Source of the DNA: an uncultured Oscillospiraceae bacterium
GTDB lineage: Bacteria; Bacillota; Clostridia; Oscillospirales; Oscillospiraceae
Reading direction: 5' to 3'
Assembly (NCBI GenBank): GCA_934589675.1
Contig: CAKTOF010000003.1
Span: 6,865 to 70,864 of the forward strand
Length of the DNA stretch: 64,000 nt
Part shown: positions 1,957 through 59,645 of the stretch, in pieces
Numbering within the stretch: the first letter of the stretch is position 1
Layout: each line of letters starts with the position of its first letter
The notes under the pieces: model-generated
Database searches by the model: none
What the model was told of the DNA's origin: nothing
Seen by the model: only the letters and a program-made list of their open reading frames with translations
Position numbers and translations under genes: made by a program

Positions 1957-2032
1957 CCGGGTGTGGCGCAGCTGGTAGCGCGCTTGACTGGGGGTCAAGA
2001 GGCCGCAAGTTCAAGTCTTGTCACTCGGACCA
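1957..2032 (+). tRNA. tRNA-Pro (anticodon GGG), CCA encoded
   Basis: 76-nt cloverleaf folded by eye. Acceptor CCGGGTG/CACTCGG (one G-U); D arm GCGC-AGCTGGTA-GCGC; anticodon stem CTTGA/TCAAG with loop CTGGGGG; T arm GCAAG-TTCAAGT-CTTGT; discriminator A plus CCA. Confidence 0.85.
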
Positions 2033-2066
2033 TCGGAGTATCCTTCGGGATACTCCGATTTTTTCT
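2033..2066 (+). terminator. Intrinsic terminator after tRNA-Pro
   Basis: Hairpin TCGGAGTATCC-ttcg-GGATACTCCGA followed by TTTTTTC. Confidence 0.8.
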
Positions 2067-2070
2067 TTTC

Positions 2071-2099
2071 TTGATTAGTTGCCAATATTCGGCTATAAT
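2071..2099 (+). promoter_or_regulatory. Sigma-A type promoter for the islet gene at 2139
   Basis: TTGATT (2071-2076), 17-nt spacer, TATAAT (2094-2099). Lies about 40 nt upstream of the ATG at 2139, which has a GGGGTG RBS. Confidence 0.6.
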
Positions 2100-2138
2100 G
2101 TCTATTAAAGAGTACAGAAACGATAGGGGTGTACATTT

Positions 2139-2720
2139 ATGGATATTATTGTTACTGCTTTATCTGTTGTCTTTTCTGGTGTTGTTGCAACTATGATCAC
2201 TATTTTTTATCAAAAGTTTTCTGGTGAGCGAACTGCAAAACGTAAAATATTTGAAACAGCAGTTTCTTACAGATTTTTCATTTGCGAAGAAGAAAATGTT
2301 AAATTGCTTAACTCAATCGATGTAATTTTTCACAAAGATCGGAAAGTTAGGCAAGCTTGGAAGTCCTATATGGATGAGGCAGATAAGCCTTCTTCAAATC
2401 CACAACTACTTAATGATAAATACATAAAATTGCTTGAAGAAATGGCGCTTTCATGTGGATATAAAGATATACGGTGGGATGATCTCAAGCGCTATTACTA
2501 TCCAATTGGCCTTTCTAATCGAAAAAACGATGATGAAGTTTTGAAAAAGCTGCAAATTAGGGCTGCAGAAAAAACTGCATCCGATACTGCTGACCAGCAA
2601 AATACTCCGCAAAATGAACAGTTCGCTCATCAAATGATGCTTGAACTATTGCCAAGGCTAATTGAAAATCCAGATAGCTTTAACAGACTAATAGAACTTG
2701 CGGATAAAACAAAAAAGTAA
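2139..2720 (+). CDS. Hypothetical protein with one N-terminal TM helix and a K/E/D-rich soluble domain (possibly DUF6680-like; not verifiable here)
   Basis: 193-aa ORF in a markedly AT-rich stretch. N-terminus IIVTALSVVFSGVVATMITIFY is hydrophobic. RBS and promoter are present. No motif recognised with confidence. Confidence 0.6.
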   Translation: MDIIVTALSVVFSGVVATMITIFYQKFSGERTAKRKIFETAVSYRFFICEEENVKLLNSIDVIFHKDRKVRQAWKSYMDEADKPSSNPQLLNDKYIKLLEEMALSCGYKDIRWDDLKRYYYPIGLSNRKNDDEVLKKLQIRAAEKTASDTADQQNTPQNEQFAHQMMLELLPRLIENPDSFNRLIELADKTKK

Positions 2721-2876
2721 TTGTACAGAGCGAAAGTATCAGTTTCATGCCCAGAGTTTGGTATTTTCGAATGAATACCTCTTGCCGACTACCAGCAAAC
2801 CGTTGATATATCTGTGTTTTTTGAGATCCTATGACCATTATCTGACTTTTCACGAAATTCAAACTGGAGATTGAAC

Positions 2877-3203
2877 ATGAACGAGCGAATTGCGGACACA
2901 CTTGATTTTACAGCCTGTAAATACATTCCCGAGCTGTACAAGGAAATGCGCGCAAAGATGGAATGGGACGATGATTTCGGAGAAAACTTGAGCGCGTTGT
3001 GGGATATTCTCACCGGAATGCCTTATAAGGGCGATGATTTTACGATCATCCGTCCGGTCAGATTTGAAAATGTTCCCCATGGGCAAAATGACATCTTCAC
3101 CGAATATGTGGACAAACTGTGCGCAATCTTCCAACGCGCACGGGATCGGTATGGGGATATTACGGCAACCATTCGTTATACTGACTCTGAGAAAAATAAT
3201 TGA
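2877..3203 (+). CDS. Barstar-family ribonuclease inhibitor-like protein
   Basis: Helix motif FGENLSALWDILTG matches the barstar core YGENLDALWDCLTG. Size (108 aa) and beta-alpha order are barstar-like. ATG at 2877 follows the TGGAGA RBS; the ORF track starts at TTG 2871. Confidence 0.7.
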   Translation: MNERIADTLDFTACKYIPELYKEMRAKMEWDDDFGENLSALWDILTGMPYKGDDFTIIRPVRFENVPHGQNDIFTEYVDKLCAIFQRARDRYGDITATIRYTDSEKNN

Positions 3204-3334
3204 TCGAATTATTTAATTTAACGGATAAAAGCTCTTGCTGACTGCCTGTGAACCATTGATATGACAGAACTTTTCCAAGTCCTAATGTCATTTCTCGCAC
3301 AATTTAACAGTGCGCGTCATTTGGCGCTGAAATC

Positions 3335-3398: not shown

Positions 3399-3710
3399 TT
3401 ATTTTTTGCTCAGACGCTCGATGAGCGCCAGCACAAGCGCGGCGTCTTCCCCATTGAGCGTGCGAAGACCCGCAAGGGCTTTGCATTCGAGCGCGGGCTG
3501 CGCGGAGCCCTCGTCGAAGAACTGCTGCGGCGTGATCTCAAAATAGTCGCAGATCGCGAAAAACTCCCGGAACGGCGGCAGCGCCTTTCCGGAGGAGATG
3601 TTATAGACGTAGCCCCGGCTGTGGCCGAGGTCGTAGCTCATTTTATATTCCGAGACGCCTTTTTTCAGCCGCAGCTGCGTGATGCGTTCGCGCACGAATT
3701 CTTCCGTCAT
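3399..3710 (-). CDS. XRE-family helix-turn-helix transcriptional regulator (SinR-sized)
   Basis: 103 aa. ITQLRLKKGVSEYKMSYDLGHSRGYVYNISSGKALP is a classic HTH_3/XRE motif, followed by a ~35-aa C-terminal helical tail. RBS is GGCAGGAGG. Confidence 0.85.
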   Translation of the reverse strand: MTEEFVRERITQLRLKKGVSEYKMSYDLGHSRGYVYNISSGKALPPFREFFAICDYFEITPQQFFDEGSAQPALECKALAGLRTLNGEDAALVLALIERLSKK

Positions 3711-3785
3711 GATGGCACCTCCTGCCTCTCACTATCATATCCATTCGACGATTTCGTATAGTCGTAAAATATTTGTCAAAAAGTA

Positions 3786-3814
3786 TTGAATAGCCTAAAA
3801 ATATGTGTTATCAT
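3786..3814 (+). promoter_or_regulatory. Candidate promoter of the sipW operon
   Basis: TTGAAT (3786-3791), 17-nt spacer, TATCAT (3809-3814) preceded by TGT. Leaves a ~160-nt AT-rich leader before the sipW ATG at 3980. Confidence 0.5.
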
Positions 3815-3979
3815 GATGGAAATAATCATAAATTATTGGATGAAATTCCTGATTCGACAAAGATTAATGGACGCGAGTACAATAAATGGAAAAAGAAGGA
3901 GGCTGCGCGCTTGTTCGACGGCTTTTTTGACCGGGCGATGCTACCATTTCTTCAGACCGAGAGAGAAAGGGGTTTCCAC

Positions 3980-4546
3980 ATGAAAAAGGCGATCAGAATG
4001 ATCTGGAACGCGGCCTCGTGGGCGCTCGTCGCGGCCATTGCGGCGCTGGCGGTGCTGCTGGCGGGCGCGCGGCTTGTCGGCCTTCAGGTCTACAGCGTGC
4101 TCTCCGGCTCCATGGAGCCGGCGTACAGAACGGGCGCGATCGTCTATGTGAAGAAAATCGAACCTGAGGACATCGTGCCGGGGACGGTCATCACGTTTGC
4201 GCTCGACGAAAGCACTGCCGCGACGCACCGCGTCGTGGAGGTCGTGCCGGATGAGGCGGATCCGGACGTGCTGCGCTTTCGAACAAAGGGCGACGCGAAT
4301 GACGCGGTCGACGGTGCGCTCGTGCATGAAAGCAACGTCATCGGCACGCCGGTCTGGACGATCCCGTACCTCGGCTACGCGGCAGAATTTCTGCAAAAGC
4401 CGGCCGGGCGGGTGCTGACGGTCGGCATTGGTGCGCTGGCGGCGCTGAGCGTGCTGCTGCCGGAGCTCGTCTGCCGGCAAAAACAGGGAGGGAAACGCCG
4501 AAAGGCTCCCGATATTGAATCTCATCAAGGAGGAACCGGAAGATGA
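3980..4546 (+). CDS. sipW: Signal peptidase I, SipW (archaeal/ER S26B) type
   Basis: MKKAIRMIWN + TM helix; Ser box VLSGSMEP; His box ATHRVVEV; GDAND box; C-terminal TM anchor. The ORF-track start at 3803 is rejected in favour of ATG 3980 with an AAAGGGG RBS. Confidence 0.85.
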   Translation: MKKAIRMIWNAASWALVAAIAALAVLLAGARLVGLQVYSVLSGSMEPAYRTGAIVYVKKIEPEDIVPGTVITFALDESTAATHRVVEVVPDEADPDVLRFRTKGDANDAVDGALVHESNVIGTPVWTIPYLGYAAEFLQKPAGRVLTVGIGALAALSVLLPELVCRQKQGGKRRKAPDIESHQGGTGR

Positions 4547-5097
4547 AAACTAAAACAGGCCGCAGGGCGATCATTGTAACGCTCTGCGCGCTGCTGCTCG
4601 TCGGTGCGTCGGTGCTGGGCACTGTGGCCTACCTGACAGCGACGACGGCGGCAAGGGAAAACACGTTTACATACGGCGACATCGGCCTGACGCTCGACGA
4701 AACGACGGGCGCAAGCTACAAGATCGTCCCGGGCGTGGACATCGAAAAGGACCCGGCCGCTACGGTCGCGGCGGGCAGCGAGGATTGCTGGCTGTTCGTG
4801 AAGGTCGAGCAGACGGGCGAATTCCTGACGGGCGTCAGCTACGAGATCGACGACGGCTGGACGGCGCTGCCGGGCGAGGACGGCGTCTATTACCGTCAGG
4901 TCGACGAAGCGACGACCGAGCAGACGTTTTCCGTCCTCAAGGGCGACAAGATCACTGTGAGCACGGATATTACGAGTGCCCAGATCGCCGCGCTGACGGG
5001 CGACAACAAGACCCCGAAGCTCAAGTTCACAGCGTATGCCGTGCAGCAGGCCGCGGTCGACACGGCGGCGGAGGCATGGGCCATCGTCAGGCCGTAA
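4543..5097 (+). CDS. TasA/camelysin-like secreted protein with SipW-cognate signal peptide (paralogue 1)
   Basis: 184 aa. Signal ...LGTVAYLTATTAARENTFTYGDIGL; C-terminal AVQQAAVDTAAEAWA motif shared with the other three paralogues. ATGA overlap with sipW. Confidence 0.75.
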   Translation: MKTKTGRRAIIVTLCALLLVGASVLGTVAYLTATTAARENTFTYGDIGLTLDETTGASYKIVPGVDIEKDPAATVAAGSEDCWLFVKVEQTGEFLTGVSYEIDDGWTALPGEDGVYYRQVDEATTEQTFSVLKGDKITVSTDITSAQIAALTGDNKTPKLKFTAYAVQQAAVDTAAEAWAIVRP

Positions 5098-5123
5098 TTT
5101 AATTTTGAGAGGACGATACATAC

Positions 5124-5882
5124 ATGAAACGGAACATCATCATCAGCTGCCTGTGCCTTGCGCTGGCCGTCATGGCAGCGGCGGGCGCGTCGCTTGCGTA
5201 CTTCACGGACACGAAGGCGGCGGAGAACACGTTCACCGTCGGCGACGTGAAGATCGACCTGCTTGAGTCGGGCCTGCACCGCGAGAACGCGGGCTACGAG
5301 ACCGGCGAAACGCCCGCTCCGAGCAACGCCGAGCTCTGGTCGGACGTCGAAAAGCTCGGCTCGGGCAGCGACAGCCCCTATCGGGCCGGTGACACATTTT
5401 ACACCGACGACCAGATCAAGGCCGACGCCGCAGATTACACCTGCGAGAACGTCCGTCTGAATCCCGGCCAGAGCTACCACAAGATGCCCTACGTTGTGAA
5501 TACGGGCAAAAACGATGCGTATATCCGCATCCGCGTCATGCTCCCGGCGGCGCTTGACACGGCGGTGCTCAATTCCAGCATGTATACAACGACGGCTGTG
5601 CGCAGCGGCGAGTTCACGATGGCCTATGACGACTCCGGCGCGGTCGTGCGCGATGGCGTGGCCTACAACGTCTACACATTTACGCGCACAGCTGCGCTCA
5701 AGCCCGGCCAGATGACGTACTGGAACGTCTGGGGTACGGTGCACATGGACGCGGACGTCACCGGCGAGGAGCTTTCCGACCTTCTGCCGGAAGGGACGTT
5801 CTCCGTGCTCGTCGAGGCAGATGCCATTCAGGCGGACGGCTTTGCCGACGCGGCGGCGGCATGGGCCGCATTCGACGCTTGA
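5124..5882 (+). CDS. TasA/camelysin-like secreted protein with SipW-cognate signal peptide (paralogue 2)
   Basis: 252 aa. ...GASLAYFTDTKAAENTFTVGDVKIDL is the textbook SipW-cognate motif. C-terminus is DAIQADGFADAAAAWAAF. Confidence 0.8.
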   Translation: MKRNIIISCLCLALAVMAAAGASLAYFTDTKAAENTFTVGDVKIDLLESGLHRENAGYETGETPAPSNAELWSDVEKLGSGSDSPYRAGDTFYTDDQIKADAADYTCENVRLNPGQSYHKMPYVVNTGKNDAYIRIRVMLPAALDTAVLNSSMYTTTAVRSGEFTMAYDDSGAVVRDGVAYNVYTFTRTAALKPGQMTYWNVWGTVHMDADVTGEELSDLLPEGTFSVLVEADAIQADGFADAAAAWAAFDA

Positions 5883-5967
5883 TTGCCGGTCTGCACCTGC
5901 GGGTGCAGACCGCAGGGAAGGGCCCGCGCGGGCGGGTCTTTCCCTGCGAGCGAGGGGAGGTAGGAAG

Positions 5968-6534
5968 ATGAGACGAAGAATTCTGCTTGCAGCGGCGCTG
6001 GCGCTGCTCGTTCTCAGCACCGCCGGAACGGCGGCGTATTTCAGCGCGGAGGCGCGTGCGGAGAATTTTATCACGAGCGGCAAGGTCGACATCGCACTGC
6101 GCGAGTGGGCCGACGAGGGGGAGACGCTGCCGTATGAGGACGTGTCCGGCGTCATGCCGGGAACGGCGGTCACAAAGATCGCCGTCGTGGAGAACACGGG
6201 CAGCGCGCCCGTCTGGGTGCGCGTGCGGCTGGAAAAAAGCGTCACGGGCGCGAACGGCGCGAAGCTGGACGCATCGGCCGTTGGGCTTGCGCTCGGGAAC
6301 CGCGGCTGGACGGACGGGGATGACGGGTACTATTACTATGACCGTCCGCTCGCACCCGGAGAGACGACGGAGCCGGTGCTGACGGGCGTGGAGTTTTCGC
6401 CGGAGATGGGCAATGCCTATCAGGGCGCGCGGGCGCAGGTCGACGTGCGCGCCTGTGCCGTGCAGACGGCGAACAACGGCGCGTCCGCGCGCGAGGCGGC
6501 CGGATGGCCGGCCGCCGAAGCAAAGGGGGAATGA
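5968..6534 (+). CDS. TasA/camelysin-like secreted protein with SipW-cognate signal peptide (paralogue 3)
   Basis: Start moved to ATG 5968 (RBS GAGGGGAGG). MRRRILL...GTAAYFSAEARAENFITSGKVDI; MPGTAVTKIAVVENTG; GNAYQGARAQVDVRACAVQ. Confidence 0.75.
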   Translation: MRRRILLAAALALLVLSTAGTAAYFSAEARAENFITSGKVDIALREWADEGETLPYEDVSGVMPGTAVTKIAVVENTGSAPVWVRVRLEKSVTGANGAKLDASAVGLALGNRGWTDGDDGYYYYDRPLAPGETTEPVLTGVEFSPEMGNAYQGARAQVDVRACAVQTANNGASAREAAGWPAAEAKGE

Positions 6535-6537
6535 CGG

Positions 6538-9500
6538 ATGAATCGGCGAATCACTGCGCTTGCGCTGTGCGCCGCAACGCTTTTGGCCGTGCTGCCGTGC
6601 GGGACGGCCGCGGCGGAGACGGCGTCCTGGATCAAATGCGCCGGTGAGGCTGCGGAAACGGTTATGCTGGACGCGGCGCAGCGGCAGACGATCACGGCGC
6701 GCACGGACGCAGACGGGCAGTGGCAGATCGCCTGCGGCGACATTTGGGCGGACATTGCCGGACAGACGGAAAAGACGCTTACCGTGAGCTACGCGCTCAT
6801 TGCCAGCGCGCTCGACGGGGAAAGCGCCATGCTCCGCTATGCCTGCGGCGGACAGGTGATTGCGGGGCCGGTCACGGTCACGCTTGCGCCGGCGGACGCG
6901 GACGTGCCGGCGGACGTACAGCGCGCGGCAGCAGCAGAGCCGGCGGCATCGGACGAGGCGGCACTGACGGCGGAGGCCGCGCCGCAGGCGGGGCTGTACA
7001 CGGTCACTGTTGAGTACATGCTCTCTTCCGGCGAGCGCGCCGCGCCGAGCTGGACGGCGCAGCTGAGCGCCGGCAGCGCGCTGCGCCAGACGGTGCTCAG
7101 CCCCGCCGTCACGGGCTATGCGCCGGATCAGGAGGCAGTCGAGCTCGACATTGAGAGCCTGGAGGGCGACCGCAGCATCGTCGTGACCTATTATCCGGCC
7201 GAGACGACGTTCACCGTTCTGCACTATTACCAGCGTGTGGACGCAGACGACTATGAGCTTGCCCGGAGCCAGACCCGCACCGGCCGGACAGGCGACCCGG
7301 TCGGCGACGGCCTTACGGACACGCCGGAGGGCTTCTATGCAATGCGGTACGACGCGTCGACGCGCATCGCAGCCGACGGAAGCACGGTCATTGAGCTCTA
7401 TTATGACCGCTATTACTACCTTATGCGCTTCGACCTCGGCGGCGGCTACGGCGTCGAGCCCGTATACGCGCGCTACGGCGCGCCGATTGCGGCGGGGACT
7501 CCGACGCGCGCAGGCTATACGTTCCTCGGCTGGGATCCGCAGGTGCCGGAGACGATGCCCGCGGAAAACGCAACGCACACCGCCCTCTGGAGCGAGGGCA
7601 CGGCGGGCTTTACCGTTGTGTTCTGGTATGAAAACGCCGATGACGACGGCTATTCCGCCGCCGGGACGTACACGCCGGCCGATGTGCCGCCCGGAACGAC
7701 GGTTTCAAGTGAGGATTATCAGAATCAGGCATTCGACGGCCGCGACGCGGCGCATTTTACATACAATGCTGCAAAGGCGGAGACTGCCACCGTTGCGGGC
7801 GACGGGTCGGCGGTGCTGAATGTCTTTTTTTTGCGGAATGAGTATACGCTGACGTTCAAAGGCAGATACACCACATACAAGACGATCACGGCGAAGTACC
7901 AGCAGGACATCCATGTAGAGTTTCCGATCAAGGATGGAAATCAGACGATCTGGTGGACGGTTCCGGACGACTGCACAACGTATGTTCCCGGCAATGAGCT
8001 TGGCAGCATCGACATCATGCCGGGTGAGAATATCACGTTTACACGCGCAGATGCGACCAGCAGAACGTGGCTGTGGTACTACGTCGAGACGCTCCCGGGC
8101 GAGACGGCGGACGCGACATACGGCGGGAAGAGCTTCAAGCTCTATAAGAAGATCAACTGCGACGGGACGTCCACGCTGACGAGGAAAGAGGAGTTCCACG
8201 CCATCCGCGGCTTTACGCAGTGGCGCTCTGACCCGGTGTTTGATTCAGAAGGCAAGGCAGAGCAGAAGCGGAACAACTATTTCTACTACGCCCGCGATTC
8301 CTACACGCTGCAGTTTTTCAATTACAACGCCTATGTGACAGACAAAGAGGCGAGCGTGCTCTACGAAGCGCCGCTCGGCGGCTATGACTTCACGCCGGAC
8401 TGCCCGGCGGGCCTTGAAAAGGACGCATATGTCTTTGACGGCTGGTACCGCACGGCCGGGTGCTATGAGGGCTCGGAGGCGGATCTTTCCGAGATGACGA
8501 TGCCCGCGTCTGACCTCATTTTGTACGCGCGCTGGACGCCGAAGAGCCACCGCGTGCGGACGTACCTCAGCGAGAGCGCATTGACTGCGGGCGGCGCGGC
8601 GCTCGGCACATGGGATACCGTCCCGCACGGCACAGCCGTTGAAAGCCCGCCGGACGATCCGGCGCGGGAGGGCTATCGCTTTGTCGGGTGGTTTTACCGC
8701 GGGGCGGACGGCGCCGAGCACGCGTATGACTTTTCCATCCCCGTCACGCGCGATCTGGAGCTTTACGCGAAGTGGAGCTCCGACACGCTCGTGGCCTACA
8801 CCATCCGCTATCGGCTCGCAGACGGCACGCACGTCGCGCCCGACACAACGGGCTACGCGCCCGGCGGCGCGACGCGCACATTCGCGGCCAAGGCCGGGAC
8901 GGAGCTGTACGCAGGCTATCAGACCGGCTATTTTCCGAATGTGGCCAGCCACTCGCTGACGATGGACTTAGACGACGCGGCGCAGAACGAGTTTACATTC
9001 ATCTACGAACCGGCCGGAAAGCTGCCATACACCGTGCGGTATCTCGAGCGCGGAACGAATGCCGCGCTGCACGAGGAAAAGCAGGCTGAAACATCCGACG
9101 CCATCGTGACGGAGCGCTTCGTCGCCGTGGACGGCTACGCGCCGGACGCGTATGAAAAGCGGCTCATCCTCACGACGGACACAAACGAGCTGATCTTCTG
9201 GTACGACCGCGACGACGCCCACGCGCCGGTGCGCACGGTGCACTATGTGCAAAACGTCGCGGGCGACGGGTACACCGTCTACCGCGCGAGCGAGGACGCC
9301 GGCGGGGTCATCGGACAGACCTATGACGCGGCGCCGCTTGCGCTTGCGGGATTTACTTATCAGGCGGAAAAGAGCACGCCGTCCGGCGTGCTGACGGCGG
9401 CAGGACTGCTGCTTACGCTGTATTACGACCGCGCCCTGTACCCCTACGAGGTGCGCTATCTTGAGCTCGGCACGGAGAAGCCGCTGGCGAATCCTACCGA

Positions 9501-9981
9501 AGGCATGGCGCGCTATGGCGCGATCCTGACGTTTACGGCGGCGGACATCGCGGGCTTTGAGCTCGTCAGCACGGCGCAGCAGTCGATGACGATCGCTATT
9601 GAAGATCCCGCGGACGCGGCGAAGAAGAACGTGCGCACGTTTTACTACCGCGCGTGTCCGGCGGCGCTGACCGTGAAAAAGTCCGGCTGCGCGGCCGAGG
9701 ACGCCGGAGCGTGCTTCCTGTTCACCGTCACGGGTCCGGGCGGCTTTCAGGCGCAGCTGAGCATTGTCGGAAACGGCTCAGCGACGCTGGCAGGCCTCCC
9801 AGCGGGGACGTACACCGTGCGCGAGGAGACGGACTGGAGCTGGCGCTACACGCCGGAGGACGCGGAGTTGACCGTCGTGATCAGAAACGGCGGGACAGGC
9901 GAGGCGATTTTCCAAAACTCGCGCACGGATGACCGCTGGCTGACCGCCGACGCGCGCTGCGACAACCACTTTACCGGCTGA
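6538..9981 (+). CDS. Large secreted repeat adhesin (MucBP-like and Listeria-Bacteroides/InlB B-type repeats, C-terminal Cna-B/SpaA-like beta-sandwich), no anchor signal
   Basis: 1147 aa. Sec signal ...LPCGTAAAETA. At least 3 repeats of GY(T/R)F(L/V)GW / YVFDGWY type. Several ~70-aa Y-x-V-x-Y ... GY ... repeats (YTVRYLERGT.., YEVRYLELGT.., YTIRYRLADGT..). C-terminus is LTVKKSG...LAGLPAGTYTVREE. Confidence 0.7.
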   Translation: MNRRITALALCAATLLAVLPCGTAAAETASWIKCAGEAAETVMLDAAQRQTITARTDADGQWQIACGDIWADIAGQTEKTLTVSYALIASALDGESAMLRYACGGQVIAGPVTVTLAPADADVPADVQRAAAAEPAASDEAALTAEAAPQAGLYTVTVEYMLSSGERAAPSWTAQLSAGSALRQTVLSPAVTGYAPDQEAVELDIESLEGDRSIVVTYYPAETTFTVLHYYQRVDADDYELARSQTRTGRTGDPVGDGLTDTPEGFYAMRYDASTRIAADGSTVIELYYDRYYYLMRFDLGGGYGVEPVYARYGAPIAAGTPTRAGYTFLGWDPQVPETMPAENATHTALWSEGTAGFTVVFWYENADDDGYSAAGTYTPADVPPGTTVSSEDYQNQAFDGRDAAHFTYNAAKAETATVAGDGSAVLNVFFLRNEYTLTFKGRYTTYKTITAKYQQDIHVEFPIKDGNQTIWWTVPDDCTTYVPGNELGSIDIMPGENITFTRADATSRTWLWYYVETLPGETADATYGGKSFKLYKKINCDGTSTLTRKEEFHAIRGFTQWRSDPVFDSEGKAEQKRNNYFYYARDSYTLQFFNYNAYVTDKEASVLYEAPLGGYDFTPDCPAGLEKDAYVFDGWYRTAGCYEGSEADLSEMTMPASDLILYARWTPKSHRVRTYLSESALTAGGAALGTWDTVPHGTAVESPPDDPAREGYRFVGWFYRGADGAEHAYDFSIPVTRDLELYAKWSSDTLVAYTIRYRLADGTHVAPDTTGYAPGGATRTFAAKAGTELYAGYQTGYFPNVASHSLTMDLDDAAQNEFTFIYEPAGKLPYTVRYLERGTNAALHEEKQAETSDAIVTERFVAVDGYAPDAYEKRLILTTDTNELIFWYDRDDAHAPVRTVHYVQNVAGDGYTVYRASEDAGGVIGQTYDAAPLALAGFTYQAEKSTPSGVLTAAGLLLTLYYDRALYPYEVRYLELGTEKPLANPTEGMARYGAILTFTAADIAGFELVSTAQQSMTIAIEDPADAAKKNVRTFYYRACPAALTVKKSGCAAEDAGACFLFTVTGPGGFQAQLSIVGNGSATLAGLPAGTYTVREETDWSWRYTPEDAELTVVIRNGGTGEAIFQNSRTDDRWLTADARCDNHFTG

Positions 9982-9992
9982 GGAGGGAGACC

Positions 9993-10556
9993 ATGGACGA
10001 AACGAGAGGAAGAGCGCGCGCCGCTGCGGCGCTTCTGGCGCTGACCCTGCTCGCCTCGGCGGGCAGCGGCGCAACGGCCGCGATGCTCTCACGCCGGTCG
10101 GAAGCGGCGGAGAACGTGTTTTCCTATGCGCTTGTGGACTGCTCGGTCGACGAGGAATTCAACGGGCGCGTCAAGAAAAACGTGCAGGTGACAAACGACG
10201 GCACGACGGACGCATTCGTGCGCGCGGCGGTCATCATAAACTGGCTGAACGCAGACGGAACGGTCGCTGCCGCCGTCCCAGCGGGGTATGGCTATGAATT
10301 GACGCTGAACCCGGACGAAACGTGGCTCACCGGGGCGGATGGGTACTATTATTATCCTGCGCCGCTCGCGCCCGGACAGTCGACGCAGGGCAGCCTGCTC
10401 ACATGTAGAGTCACGCAGCCGGAGGACGCGCAATACACGCTCTCGGTGCAGATCATCGCAAGCGCCGTCCAGAGCGCGCCGGAGGCGGCGGCCGAGGAGG
10501 CGTGGGGCGTCGCGGTCGAGGACGGCCGCATCACGAAAACGGGGGTGAGCGGATGA
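9993..10556 (+). CDS. TasA/camelysin-like secreted protein with SipW-cognate signal peptide (paralogue 4)
   Basis: 187 aa. ...GATAAMLSRRSEAAENVFSYALV. Shares DGYYYY-x-PLAPG(Q/E)(S/T)T and AVQSAPEAAAEEAWG with paralogue 3. Confidence 0.7.
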   Translation: MDETRGRARAAAALLALTLLASAGSGATAAMLSRRSEAAENVFSYALVDCSVDEEFNGRVKKNVQVTNDGTTDAFVRAAVIINWLNADGTVAAAVPAGYGYELTLNPDETWLTGADGYYYYPAPLAPGQSTQGSLLTCRVTQPEDAQYTLSVQIIASAVQSAPEAAAEEAWGVAVEDGRITKTGVSG

Positions 10557-11755
10557 GACGGATCGCTGCGGCGGCGCTTGCCGCGCTGCTCACGCTTGCC
10601 ATGCTCCCGGCTGCGCTGGCTGCGCCGGGCGGGACGGTCACATACCGAGGGAGAAGCGCGGGCTTCGAGTTTTCACCCGGCAGCGCGGACGCCGCGACCG
10701 ATCTCTTCTCGGCGTTCCGGGACATCATGCCCGGCGACGCGCGGGAGACGACGGTGACCTTCAAGAACGCAGCGTCGGACTGTGACTATGTCGAACTCTA
10801 TCTGCGCGCGGAGACGAAAAGCGGGGAGGACTTCCTCTCGCAGCTCCATCTGCGCGTCGAAACCGGCGGGACGGCGCTGTTTGACGGCCCGGCTGCCATG
10901 GCGCTCTCGCGCGTACACCTCGGGACGGTCCGCGCGGGGGATTCAATGGCGCTTTCCGTCAAGCTGACGGCGCCGAAGGAGCTCGGCAATGAGTTTTCCA
11001 TCCGCGCGGGCGAGGTGGACTGGATCTTTTCGGTTTCGGCGTTCAACGCCACGCAGCTGACCGCGCGCAAGGTCTGGGGCGACGGCAGCGCTGCGCACAG
11101 CGGTGAAGTCGTCCGCGTGCAGCTGCTGAAAAACGGCAGCGCTGACCGGACGGCGGAGCTGAGCGCGCGCAATGGCTGGGCCTATACGTTCGACGGGCTG
11201 GACGCGGACGATGCGTGGACGATCGAGGAGCTGGACGTCCCGGCGGGCTACACGGCCTCTTACCAGACGGAAGGCGGCGTCGTGACCATTTTGAACGCGC
11301 CCGTCCGCACGCCCGACCTGCCGGTCACTCCGCAGCCAAGCCCACCTGCTCCTGAACCGGAGCCTGAGCCGGATGGCCCGGACGCGCCGGAGGCGGGCGC
11401 GCAGCTCACGGTCGTCAAGCGCTGGGACGGCGAAAGGATGCATCCGGACAGCGTGAATGTGACGCTCTATGACGGCGAAACGGCCGTCGAGACCGTCCGC
11501 CTGACGGCCGAGGACGGCTGGACGCACACATGGACGGAGCTTCCCGCCGCGGGCGACTACGCTGTGCTCGAGTCGGACATCCCGCGCGGATTCTACCCGT
11601 CGTACTCGGTGGAGGGCGGCGACGTGACGATCACGAACGCGGCGTCGCTGCTTGATACGGGCCGGAGCGTGGACGCGTGGTATCTGGCGGGCGCGGGCGC
11701 GGCGCTGATGCTGATCGGCGCGCTCGTGCGGCGTGTCAGGCGGCGCGATGCGTAG
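10553..11755 (+). CDS. Cell-wall sorting-signal protein: N-terminal TasA-like domain + two Cna-B repeats + LLDTG sorting signal
   Basis: ATG 10553 makes an ATGA overlap with the previous stop. Sec signal ...PAALAAPGG. Two Cna-B type repeats (KVWGDG...TILN and VVKRWDG...TITN) are separated by a PQPSPPAPEPEPEPDGPD linker. C-terminus is LLDTG + hydrophobic stretch + RRVRRRDA. Confidence 0.75.
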   Translation: MRRIAAAALAALLTLAMLPAALAAPGGTVTYRGRSAGFEFSPGSADAATDLFSAFRDIMPGDARETTVTFKNAASDCDYVELYLRAETKSGEDFLSQLHLRVETGGTALFDGPAAMALSRVHLGTVRAGDSMALSVKLTAPKELGNEFSIRAGEVDWIFSVSAFNATQLTARKVWGDGSAAHSGEVVRVQLLKNGSADRTAELSARNGWAYTFDGLDADDAWTIEELDVPAGYTASYQTEGGVVTILNAPVRTPDLPVTPQPSPPAPEPEPEPDGPDAPEAGAQLTVVKRWDGERMHPDSVNVTLYDGETAVETVRLTAEDGWTHTWTELPAAGDYAVLESDIPRGFYPSYSVEGGDVTITNAASLLDTGRSVDAWYLAGAGAALMLIGALVRRVRRRDA

Positions 11756-12377
11756 ACGGGCAGGAGGTGTGCTTTTCGTGCTCGGCGCGGCGGTTTTGAC
11801 GGCGGCCTTCATCCGCGGCGCGCAGACGGCGGCGGATGACGCCGCGGCCGGGCAGGCGTCAGCGGAGATCCTGACGCAGTTTTATGCGGCCATGGAACGG
11901 ACGGCGGACGAGGCAGCGGACAGCGCAGCGGATGAGGCGGCGGACACGCTGCCCGCGCCGCTTGCTGCGGCAGCTTCGCAGGCGGCACCGTCGCCCGCGG
12001 ACGCGGAGACGCCGGAGTGCATCGGCGCGCTGGTCATCCCGGCCATCGCGCTGGCGCTGCCGGTGCTGGCGGACTGGTCGGACGGGAACCTCGAGCTTGC
12101 GCCCTGCCGCCAATTCGGCGCGCCGGAGACGGATGACCTTGTCATCGCGGGCCACAATTACCGCAGCCAGTTTTCCCGGCTTGGGGAGCTCTGCGCCGGC
12201 GATGCGCTCACATTGACAGACCGCGAGGGCAGAAGCCACACCTACACCGTCGCGGAAACGGCGACCGTCGCGCCGGACGACGTGGCGGCCGTGCAGAGCG
12301 CGGCATATCCGCTCGTGCTCTACACATGCACGCCGGGCGCGAAGGCGCGCGTGGCCGTATTTTGCAATTACGCATAG
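11748..12377 (+). CDS. Sortase family transpeptidase
   Basis: TM anchor, Ala/Asp-rich linker, catalytic His (VIAGHN), Cys (LVLYTCTP) and Arg (KARVAVF). ATG 11748 overlaps the preceding stop; GTG 11733 is an alternative start. Confidence 0.8.
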   Translation: MRRRAGGVLFVLGAAVLTAAFIRGAQTAADDAAAGQASAEILTQFYAAMERTADEAADSAADEAADTLPAPLAAAASQAAPSPADAETPECIGALVIPAIALALPVLADWSDGNLELAPCRQFGAPETDDLVIAGHNYRSQFSRLGELCAGDALTLTDREGRSHTYTVAETATVAPDDVAAVQSAAYPLVLYTCTPGAKARVAVFCNYA

Positions 12378-12378
12378 A

Positions 12379-12408
12379 AAAAGGGCAGAGGCCGAGCCTC
12401 TGCCCTTT
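12379..12408. terminator. Bidirectional intrinsic terminator between sortase and the convergent yoaK-like gene
   Basis: AAAGGGCAGAGGC-cga-GCCTCTGCCCTTT. Confidence 0.8.
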
Positions 12409-56203: not shown

Positions 56204-56440
56204 AAAAAATGAACCGCTGGTGTCAAGCGGTTCATGAGAGAAGACGGAAAATACAAAAGCTCCGATCCGACCCTTGATAGCGCTTCACACGAATTTCATG
56301 TGACAGTCCGCAGGGTATTTCCCGGCGGCCCAGCCATCCGGACGTCAGGCAGCATCCGGACACTTCGGCGAAGCAGCCTTTCCCGCCGGACAGCTGCCTG
56401 TCTCTTCCGGCGATACTCATCGGCTTCGCGCCTCTATCTT
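56204..56440 (-). promoter_or_regulatory. Lysine riboswitch (L-box) with intrinsic terminator
   Basis: Minus strand reads AGATAGAGGCGCGAAGCC-GATGAGTA-...GGAAGAGAC...GGGAAAGG...TTCGCCGAAG...CTGGG...GGACTGTCA, matching the L-box core (compare B. subtilis lysC AGATAGAGGTGCGAA..GAGTA..GTCGCCGAAG..GGCTGTCA). Expression platform is GAACCGCT-tgacacc-AGCGGTTC + TTTTTT (56204-56236). Confidence 0.8.
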
Positions 56441-56457
56441 GCGATTCAATTTCTTCA

Positions 56458-59504: not shown

Positions 59505-59645
59505 CCCTTATCAAGAGTGGCGGAGGGACCGGCCCTGTGAAGCCCGGCAACCTGCGGTGAGCAAGGTGCCAAATCCGGCGAAAAATCGACAGATGAGGAA
59601 AGCGAGCTTTCAGCGCCCTGTCGGAAGACAGGGCGCTTTTTCCTC
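59505..59645 (+). promoter_or_regulatory. SAM-I riboswitch (S-box) with intrinsic terminator
   Basis: CCTTATCAAGAGTGGCGGAGGGACCGGCCCTGTGAAGCCCGGCAACC...GGTGCCAAATCC...AGATGAGG matches the S-box core. Terminator is AGCGCCCTGTC-ggaa-GACAGGGCGCTTTTT (59612-59645). Confidence 0.9.

Follow-up and report, generated by a model that had tools for sequence, protein, structure and literature searches.

An eight-gene sipW-sortase cassette that probably encodes a wall-anchored pilus of TasA/BsaA-type subunits in an uncultured Oscillospiraceae bacterium

We analyzed a stretch of 64,000 nucleotides (the window) from an uncultured Oscillospiraceae bacterium (assembly GCA_934589675.1, contig CAKTOF010000003.1, positions 6,865 to 70,864). 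It harbors a cassette of eight co-directional genes (window positions 3980-12377, + strand) that we think likely to build a wall-anchored pilus, in which subunits of the TasA/BsaA type would be joined by donor-strand exchange and an adhesin would sit at the tip. From 5′ to 3′, the cassette consists of sipW, the genes of three small secreted subunits (P1, P2, and P3), an adhesin gene, the gene of a fourth small subunit (P4), the gene of a Cna-B anchor protein, and a sortase gene followed by a strong terminator. This order had been proposed in a preliminary description made from the sequence without database searches, and it was confirmed by the listing of open reading frames (ORFs) and by hidden Markov model (HMM) scans. 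The composite fibre proposed at the same time, with an anchored base, a TasA-like shaft, and an adhesin, is still the best reading of the locus, but its description as non-covalent was overstated in view of near-invariant Asn, Glu, and Lys residues in the subunits.

Conservation of the cassette and its small subunits

The same gene order was found in all five loci sampled through protein matches. It is shared by the contexts of the 17 anchor homologues retrieved in a word-indexed search, and three loci with P3 homologues, selected solely by the length of their contigs, encode SipW, small proteins, P3, a protein of ~1000 aa, a small protein, the anchor, and a sortase. A scan of the Genome Taxonomy Database (GTDB), with one genome per species and a pattern derived from a P3 alignment that does not match the P3 of the window itself, yielded 97 relatives, and 80 loci were retrieved. 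HMMs for each component were run on the six-frame ORFs of all retrieved loci, 40 of which had adequate flanks. In 27 of these 40 loci, all components are present and arranged as sipW, P1(n), P2(n), P3, adhesin, P4, anchor, sortase; nine others lack the sortase alone. Thus, the grouping of a sipW set with a sortase, noted in the preliminary description, is not confined to one genome. The position of each of the four subunit classes is fixed. The number of P1 and P2 genes differs among loci; P3 and P4 are mostly single-copy, with two P3-type genes in a few loci. One locus (L066) contains two tandem cassettes, and in another (L067) a second sipW-P1 start lies downstream of the cassette.

Carriers, as labelled in their records, include Oscillospiraceae, Christensenellales, Ruminococcus, Lachnospiraceae, Erysipelotrichales, a metagenome-assembled genome (MAG) of Coriobacteriia, and several MAGs of Saccharibacteria. 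Candidate cultured carriers in the scan are Pseudoflavonifractor sp. MSJ-30 (L017), Laedolimicola ammoniilytica (L020), Brotocaccenecus cirricatena (L016), and Hespellia stercorisuis (L085, without an adjacent sortase). The five Saccharibacteria-labelled loci (L076, L078, L080, L087, and L088) have a reduced cassette, in which sipW is followed by P2, P2, P3, and an anchor whose C terminus has just a transmembrane segment, and all lack the adhesin, P4, and the sortase. This cassette might reflect an ancestral, minimal state, or it might be an artefact of binning. In a Christensenellales MAG (L008, positions 4998-6113), genes for a phage-type integrase and an IS21-family IstB protein lie just upstream of the cassette, which hints that it can be mobile.

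The first gene, sipW (3980-4546, +), codes for a signal peptidase I of the archaeal/endoplasmic reticulum type of 188 aa (TIGR02228, 95.1 bits for a cutoff of 51.85). As initially described, it has the catalytic boxes SGSMEP (4103-4120, aa 42-47) and THRVV (4223-4237, aa 82-86). Its score with NF046067, the equivalog model of Bacillus SipW, is 100.1 bits, under the cutoff of 190. Judging by these scores, the window peptidase is of the SipW type and not an orthologue of the Bacillus enzyme. P1 to P4 all have a putative SipW-type signal peptide, and immediately past its cleavage site each bears a putative, disordered donor strand (xENTFxxG). The signal peptides of the adhesin and the anchor are ordinary ones, not of the SipW type.

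P1 (184 aa; 4543-5097, +) has the donor motif ENTFTYG (4657-4677) and matches the BsaA model TIGR04090 weakly (E = 0.0012); its residues N40, E53, K69, and Q168 are kept in 95 to 97 of 98 P1-type homologues. P2 (252 aa; 5124-5882, +; donor motif ENTFTVG, 5223-5243) represents the largest type of small subunit, is found in one to four copies per related locus, and is a candidate for the major shaft subunit. P3 (188 aa; 5968-6534, +) has the donor motif ENFITSG (6061-6081) and a Lys, K70, within VTKIA (6169-6183). It represents the most conserved type, for which more than 440 homologues were found. P4 (187 aa; 9993-10556, +; donor motif ENVFSYA, 10110-10130) is invariably encoded between the adhesin and the anchor, and its Asn and Glu are kept in 55 of 58 homologues.

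The preliminary description attributed a SipW-cognate signature to all four small proteins. With TIGR04088, the model of that signal (cutoff 19), P2 (35.1 bits) and P3 (23.9 bits) indeed pass; P1 and P4 were unreported at E < 0.01, and P4 lacks the final Gly of the motif. The Asn and Glu columns that are invariant in P2 and P3 nevertheless extend to P1 and P4. None of the four reaches the cutoff of 60 bits of TIGR04090, with 48.0 bits for P3, 29.6 for P4, 18.6 for P1, and 15.7 for P2. Similarly, the membership in the TasA/camelysin family assumed at first was not borne out at the cutoff of PF12389 (22.5 bits), of which P3 falls 0.6 bit short (21.9) and P2 further (18.5); P1, P4, and the anchor gave no matches to that model. 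Many P3 homologues carry a precomputed PF12389 match. A phmmer search with P3 against the sequences of the PDB returned nothing.

Structure prediction linked P3 to TasA. In the AlphaFold2 (AF2) model of P3 (predicted local distance difference test [pLDDT] of 81), the body is a TasA-type jelly roll from which the N-terminal donor strand is detached, and residues 20-36, which include ENFITSG, are disordered. In a Foldseek search, its sole PDB match at E ≤ 1e-3 was the TasA fibre 8aur (E = 1.5e-4; template modeling [TM] score of 0.52). A disordered donor strand has likewise been described for BsaA (PMC11580942).

We counted residue conservation in 344 non-redundant subunits. The donor-strand Asn is kept in 93 to 99% of each subunit type, and so is a Glu 13 positions after it (89 to 99%). 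The second strand of the body, which follows the PG motif, has a Lys in 97 to 99% of P1 and P3, and a Gln in the last strand is kept in more than 92% of the subunits. In the P3 model, the Glu belongs to the first strand of the body and the Lys to the second one. In BsaA, N35, E56, and K74 form an intermolecular isopeptide triad required for oligomers stable to heat and sodium dodecyl sulfate (SDS) (PMC11580942). By topology, the Asn, Glu, and Lys of the subunits appear comparable to these published positions. The resemblance of these near-invariant residues to the BsaA triad suggests that intermolecular isopeptide bonds may lock the shaft joints covalently.

Anchor, sortase, and adhesin

The anchor (400 aa; 10553-11755, +) has an ordinary signal peptide, two Cna-B domains (PF05738, 87.7 bits), and a Pro-rich linker. 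Its N-terminal domain (~10622-11050, +) was modeled with a pLDDT of 86 and a predicted TM (pTM) score of 0.81. Three PDB entries only matched this model at E ≤ 1e-3, namely TasA 5of2 and 5of1 (E = 1.3e-5; TM score of 0.50) and the archaeal bundling pilin 7ueg (E = 8e-5). ORFs of the P3 type cross-match the HMM of the anchor domain, and hhalign aligned the domain with the P3 family at an E value of 6e-4 and a probability of 28%, pairing MPGD with MPGT and LGNEY with MGNEYQ. Fold search, hhalign, and HMM cross-matches all suggest that the N-domain is a fibre-type subunit of the TasA fold, similar to P3. Short anchors of 208 to 257 aa (L006 and L008) consist of the N-domain and the sorting signal alone, and many members of the family have no Cna-B domain. 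An exhaustive HMMER search (E ≤ 1e-3) collected 1905 cluster representatives of the N-domain family at 50% identity, and among the 150 best of these, almost every one has the domain right behind a signal peptide.

The C terminus of the anchor, ...LLDTGRSVDAWYLAGAGAALMLIGALVRRVRRRDA, has the tripartite organization of a sorting signal (11648-11755, +), with an xxxTG motif (LLDTG, 11648-11662), a hydrophobic span, and a basic tail (RRVRRRDA). The preliminary description had thus rightly recognized a Cna-B protein with a sorting signal. The canonical LPXTG is lacking; the consensus of the family is LIQTGQ-x-NWP, and no TIGR01167 match was reported for the window anchor in the NCBIfam scan. Among the top 147 representatives of the family, 44 have L(I/L)QTG, 64 have xPxTG, and 11 have another xTG motif. 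A literature search for 'LIQTG' returned no relevant paper.

The sortase gene (11748-12377, +) codes for 209 aa from its ATG, with alternative GTG starts at 11733 and 11778. The protein scores 58.6 bits with PF04203 (cutoff 26.6) and, in keeping with its first identification, has the catalytic His in AGHN (12147-12158), Cys in YTCT (12321-12332), and Arg, all kept in 42 or 43 of 44 homologues. Its best PDB match is the Bacillus anthracis sortase 2kw8. Scored with the NCBIfam models of classes C, D, E, GN, and SrtD (cutoffs 140 to 165), it passes none, the best scores, for SrtD and class C, being 40.5 (cutoff 140) and 40.1 bits (cutoff 160); by this sequence comparison, it fits no defined class.

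Sortase genes are associated with a particular type of motif. Among non-redundant anchors with at least 700 bp of downstream sequence, all 40 with L(I/V/L)xTG have an adjacent sortase gene, compared with two of 12 with (P)xTG-like motifs and none of the seven without a motif, which have a transmembrane segment only. The best reading of these sequences is a sortase dedicated to the non-canonical L(I/L)xTG signal. As the sorting signal of the anchor is the sole one in the cassette, the sortase would be the anchoring enzyme and not a polymerase. The cassettes of L027, L034, L040, L048, L053, L066, L067, L071, and L085, whose anchors have canonical-looking xP(K/Q/R)TG or AKTG motifs, have no sortase gene within ~10 kb, and a broader, second-round sortase HMM detected nothing further in the sortase-less loci. 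This implies that they use a sortase encoded elsewhere.

The putative tip adhesin (1147 aa; 6538-9981, +) has no sorting signal. It contains Listeria-Bacteroides repeats (Flg_new/List_Bact_rpt, 67 bits), a MucB2-like segment that scores just below the Muc_B2 cutoff, and a weakly SpaA-like C terminus. Adhesin heads vary among loci, with Listeria-Bacteroides repeats (Flg_new), von Willebrand factor A (VWA) domains, or DUF7601, but the C-terminal module is shared. In the window, this CnaB/SpaA-like domain (9667-9936, +) has its Lys in LTVKK, its Glu in YTVREE, and its Asn in IFQNSR. In an alignment of 39 adhesins, picked from sequences that match the tail motif, the corresponding K41, E89, and N120 are invariant, as is WSWR. 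From what is known of the CnaB fold, these three residues may form an intramolecular isopeptide triad.

Beyond this module, the adhesin ends in a tail, WLTADARCDNHFTG (9937-9978, +), that resembles a donor strand. The tail consensus is W-L-x-G-x5-6-N-x-aromatic, and its W127 and N136 are invariant in the same alignment. The motif W-[LI]-x(3-12)-N-x-aromatic is present in 46 of 57 non-redundant adhesins with differing head domains. The N-x-aromatic of the tail mirrors the ENTF of the subunit donor strands, which suggests that the tail might act as one. When the 180 C-terminal residues of the window adhesin served as query, no homologue was recovered at E ≤ 1e-3. Every locus with a complete adhesin has P4 directly after it. 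Several tails contain a Cys (ARCDNHF in the window), and the alignment of anchors revealed a near-invariant Cys-Asp-Tyr motif (DCDY) in their N-domain; inspection of six loci by eye showed no consistent co-occurrence of the two.

Proposed assembly and alternative explanations

We propose an assembly scheme that follows the BsaA model of Kivimaki et al., in which the fibre grows at its base: the newest monomer, held by its signal peptide, is the acceptor and is then cleaved by SipW (PMC11580942). The adhesin would be incorporated first, with its C-terminal tail occupying the first subunit's groove, most probably that of P4. Each new subunit, which its still uncleaved signal peptide retains in the membrane, would then accept the donor strand of the previous one, after which cleavage by SipW would free its own donor strand. 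Extension from the base would produce a shaft of P2, and possibly also P1, whose joints might be locked by intermolecular isopeptide bonds between the donor-strand Asn and the Lys, with the Glu, as in BsaA. The chain would terminate on the anchor, perhaps through P3, the last strand being received by the TasA-fold N-domain on its Cna-B stalk. Finally, the adjacent sortase would recognize L(I/L)xTG and join the anchor to peptidoglycan. The polarity and the order of subunits are inferred; such a scheme would explain that only P1 to P4 need SipW, that a single sorting signal suffices, and that the tail of the adhesin is conserved.

Several observations weigh against this scheme. The cassette and its homologues are known from sequences and predicted structures alone, and the small subunits are under the curated cutoffs for membership in the TasA (PF12389) and BsaA (TIGR04090) families. 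The link of the anchor N-domain to TasA comes with TM scores of only ~0.5 and the low hhalign probability mentioned above, and a profile of the domain (140-170 residues) gave only noise and no TasA match against the PDB and Pfam. The N-terminal strands of the anchor are ordered in its monomer model, so that its groove may already be occupied by its own strand; alternatively, the anchor might be a donor, and the polarity would then be the opposite one. As for covalent locking, the anchor has no conserved Lys at the equivalent strand. The same donor Asn is also present in CalY of B. cereus, for which no isopeptide bond is known. Lastly, the BsaA polymers of Clostridium perfringens strain 13 were unaffected when srtB was deleted (PMC7395162).

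A fibre of opposite polarity is the main rival to our scheme. The wall anchor would donate its N-terminal strand (TVTYRG...) into the first shaft subunit in the manner of a TapA-like nucleator, the subunits would donate outward, and the adhesin would cap the distal strand, its tail serving for folding or for binding to P4. In B. subtilis, TapA nucleates TasA through such N-terminal strand donation. Consistent with a donor role, a conserved beta-strand lies three residues past the cleavage site of the anchor and is ordered in the AF2 model, the anchor model matches closed, monomeric crystal forms of TasA whereas P3 matches the fibre form, and the Lys conserved in P1 and P3 is lacking in the anchor. 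However, such a fibre would grow without a membrane tether, HMM scans of the adhesin showed no TasA-like acceptor domain, and the invariant Asn-x-aromatic of its tail mimics donor strands. Moreover, the newest monomer is the acceptor in the published BsaA model (PMC11580942). We therefore regard the reversed fibre as unlikely, albeit to be taken seriously.

The other explanations detach the sortase from the fibre or give it a larger part. The cassette could specify a released matrix fibre similar to those of TasA or BsaA, with the Cna-B protein and the sortase providing a loose surface receptor or an independent adhesin. BsaA polymers are indeed mainly extracellular or membrane associated, with no phenotype of the srtB deletion (PMC7395162, PMC11580942), and the sortase is missing from nine of the 40 cassettes. 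Yet the anchor N-domain has a P3-like, TasA-type predicted fold fused straight to the sorting signal, the sortase-less loci keep a canonical xPxTG usable by a housekeeping sortase, gene order is strict, and P4, anchor, and sortase are translationally coupled, all of which makes a released fibre improbable. We give even less credence to a classical sortase pilus, in which a class C-like sortase would polymerize the Cna-B protein and the TasA-like proteins would be accessory. Matches to the class C sortase (40 bits) and GramPos_pilinD3 (26 bits) models point that way but are under the cutoffs (160 and 27.2 bits), there is one sorting signal only, the anchor sequence has no YPKN-type pilin motif, and many members of its family have no Cna-B domains; with a single signal, no YPKN motif, and a class C score so far below cutoff, we rejected this candidate. 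The least probable account is that a sipW-tasA matrix operon and a surface-protein pair of CnaB protein and sortase, unrelated to each other, are merely neighbors here. All that speaks for it is the prior expectation from the sortase-free TasA systems of Bacillus (PMC13082335). Against it stand the same order in dozens of species, the adjacent sortase of all 40 L(I/V/L)xTG anchors, the TasA-like anchor N-domain, the overlapping genes, and the single strong terminator. Because the gene order recurs across species, chance adjacency is excluded, and we rejected it on the basis of this conserved synteny.

If the proposed pilus exists, many uncultured gut Clostridia would bear adhesive pili distinct from those made by sortase polymerization or type IV assembly. 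Their swappable adhesin heads (VWA, Listeria-Bacteroides repeats, and MucBP) would probably govern attachment to hosts or substrates in the gut. The cassette would also offer a candidate answer to why a sortase gene adjoins the bsa operon of C. perfringens. For applications, it would provide a sortase matched to a substrate whose motif, L(I/L)QTG, is non-canonical, of possible use in sortase engineering, and self-assembling, possibly self-ligating subunits together with a tail tag for protein materials.

Transcription unit, surroundings, and known systems

The eight genes probably form a single operon, for which overlaps, short gaps, one strong terminator, and the conserved gene order are indirect evidence. 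ATGA overlaps are found at the sipW/P1 and P4/anchor junctions, and the other gaps are of 3, 11, 26, and 85 nt, in line with the preliminary description, to which one 8-nt overlap must be added. The promoter-like site TTGAAT-17-TATCAT reported there was located upstream of sipW (3786-3814, +). It includes a TG element and matches nine of 12 positions in a consensus scan, a consensus match only. A terminator-like hairpin of the intrinsic type (12380-12408, +), with a 13-bp stem containing eight GC pairs and followed by a T-rich tail, closes the unit.

The 85-nt spacer between P2 and P3 (5883-5967, +) is highly structured, with two tandem GC-rich hairpins, no U-run, and a minimum free energy of -60.4 kcal/mol (z = -6.07 relative to shuffled sequences). 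Across 54 related loci, the junction before P3 is both the longest (median of ~160 nt) and the most structured, at -0.39 kcal/mol per nt versus -0.15 to -0.19 for the sipW-P1, P1-P2, and adhesin-P4 junctions. This suggests that the spacer controls the ratio of shaft genes to tip and base genes. It may be an intra-operon attenuator or an mRNA stabilizer; as an attenuator, the structure ahead of P3 might reduce read-through.

The preliminary description let the unit start at 3399, which takes in a gene for an XRE/helix-turn-helix regulator (3399-3710, -) divergent from sipW and outside the cassette. An XRE homologue is near the cassette in only one of ~85 related loci, so that we rejected it as a member of the module; it is a local regulator at most. 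Further upstream in the window are gatB, a tRNA-Pro(GGG) gene with its own terminator hairpin (1957-2032), and an islet of ~43% GC in a genome of 63% GC (region 1957-3210). The islet follows the tRNA gene and encodes a DUF6680 protein (2139-2720) and a 110-aa ORF (2871-3203) in which inspection by eye alone suggested a barstar-like motif, GENLSALWDILTG. The islet has the appearance of a small insertion at a tRNA gene. An Rfam scan also detected a lysine riboswitch (56270-56444, -; 105 bits) and a SAM riboswitch (59505-59599, +; 80 bits), which are unrelated to the cassette.

Taken together, the cassette might define a third mode of pilus assembly, and a widespread one, in Gram-positive bacteria: a SipW-gated, tip-first donor-strand heteropolymer whose joints, that of the adhesin tail among them, are locked by spontaneous Asn-Lys isopeptide bonds between molecules, a TasA-fold base linked to the wall through a new L(I/L)QTG sortase specificity, and an RNA spacer that sets the ratio of shaft to minor subunits. 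This wider claim is tentative, and we lean slightly against it in that full form.

The closest known system is sipW-bsaABC of C. perfringens (PMC7395162, PMC11580942). Both loci encode SipW, several TasA-like paralogues, and a large accessory protein, which in BsaC has a VWA domain, as do the large proteins of L006 and L008. They also share donor-strand assembly, here predicted, with an Asn in the donor strand, and a sortase gene at the locus. Most C. perfringens strains, moreover, have an LPXTG-bearing BsaB-like protein speculated to anchor the fibre (PMC11580942). In contrast to C. perfringens, where srtB is divergent and upstream, the sortase gene is the last of the same operon here, four subunit classes follow one another in fixed order, and the cassette does not include bsaRS two-component genes. 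Its anchor places a domain of predicted TasA fold on a Cna-B stalk and bears L(I/L)xTG in place of LPXTG, its large protein ends in a conserved CnaB-like module followed by the tail, and the window proteins score at most 48 bits with the BsaA family model, below its cutoff of 60.

With tapA-sipW-tasA of B. subtilis and sipW-tasA-calY/CapP of B. cereus, the cassette has in common a dedicated SipW, subunits of the TasA fold with N-terminal donor strands (8aur), and an accessory nucleator or anchor (TapA and CapP in Bacillus). Unlike the cassette, the Bacillus systems are sortase independent (PMC13082335), have no tip adhesin or wall-sorting signal, and form fibres that SDS dissociates; the window proteins, for their part, fall short of the PF12389 cutoff. 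A similar locus logic and a fold match link the cassette to the haloarchaeal Tafi pili (PMC11821415, PMC12337348) and to the bundling pili AbpA (7ueg), in which a dedicated signal peptidase is encoded with strand-donating pilins, both major and minor, and with tip and anchor proteins that are predicted. However, the archaeal anchor spans the membrane and is not a sortase substrate, and haloarchaeal pilins use the Tat (twin-arginine translocation) pathway.

SpaA-type sortase pili likewise have a tip adhesin, a shaft, and a base, are attached to the wall by sortase, contain Cna-B/SpaA domains with Lys-Glu-Asn triads, which in the cassette lie in the stalk and in the C-module of the adhesin, and assemble tip first and base last, as we propose here. 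Unlike theirs, the shaft subunits of the cassette have neither sorting signals nor pilin motifs, and the sortase therefore cannot be their polymerase; they would be polymerized through SipW-gated donor-strand exchange.

The preliminary description held that the characterized TasA systems lack sortases and knew of no characterized composite of this kind. The former is contradicted by srtB next to sipW-bsaABC and by two preprints that link TasA-family loci, often, to LPXTG anchors and sortases (PMC11580942; 10.64898/2026.01.04.697558). As to the latter, such loci are reported in these preprints, and a search of the literature on camelysin/sortase pili and TasA-like wall anchors found no experimental study of such a composite fibre. 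In the AbpX/TasA-like loci (10.64898/2026.01.04.697558), the genes for a fibril subunit of the TasA superfamily and a signal peptidase I are accompanied by those for minor subunits, a tip protein, a sortase, and an LPXTG anchor, and an AlphaFold3 model joins the LPXTG anchor to the fibril by donor-strand complementation. These loci differ from the cassette in that they have another subunit family and a signal peptidase I with ten transmembrane segments instead of SipW, and they are a computational prediction only. The concept of a TasA-like fibre with a sortase-linked anchor is thus not categorically new, as both preprints already describe LPXTG anchors or sortases at TasA-like loci. What the present locus adds is a fixed eight-gene architecture with four subunit classes, an anchor of predicted TasA fold, the coupling of L(I/L)xTG to a putatively dedicated sortase, the adhesin tail, and the conserved RNA spacer.

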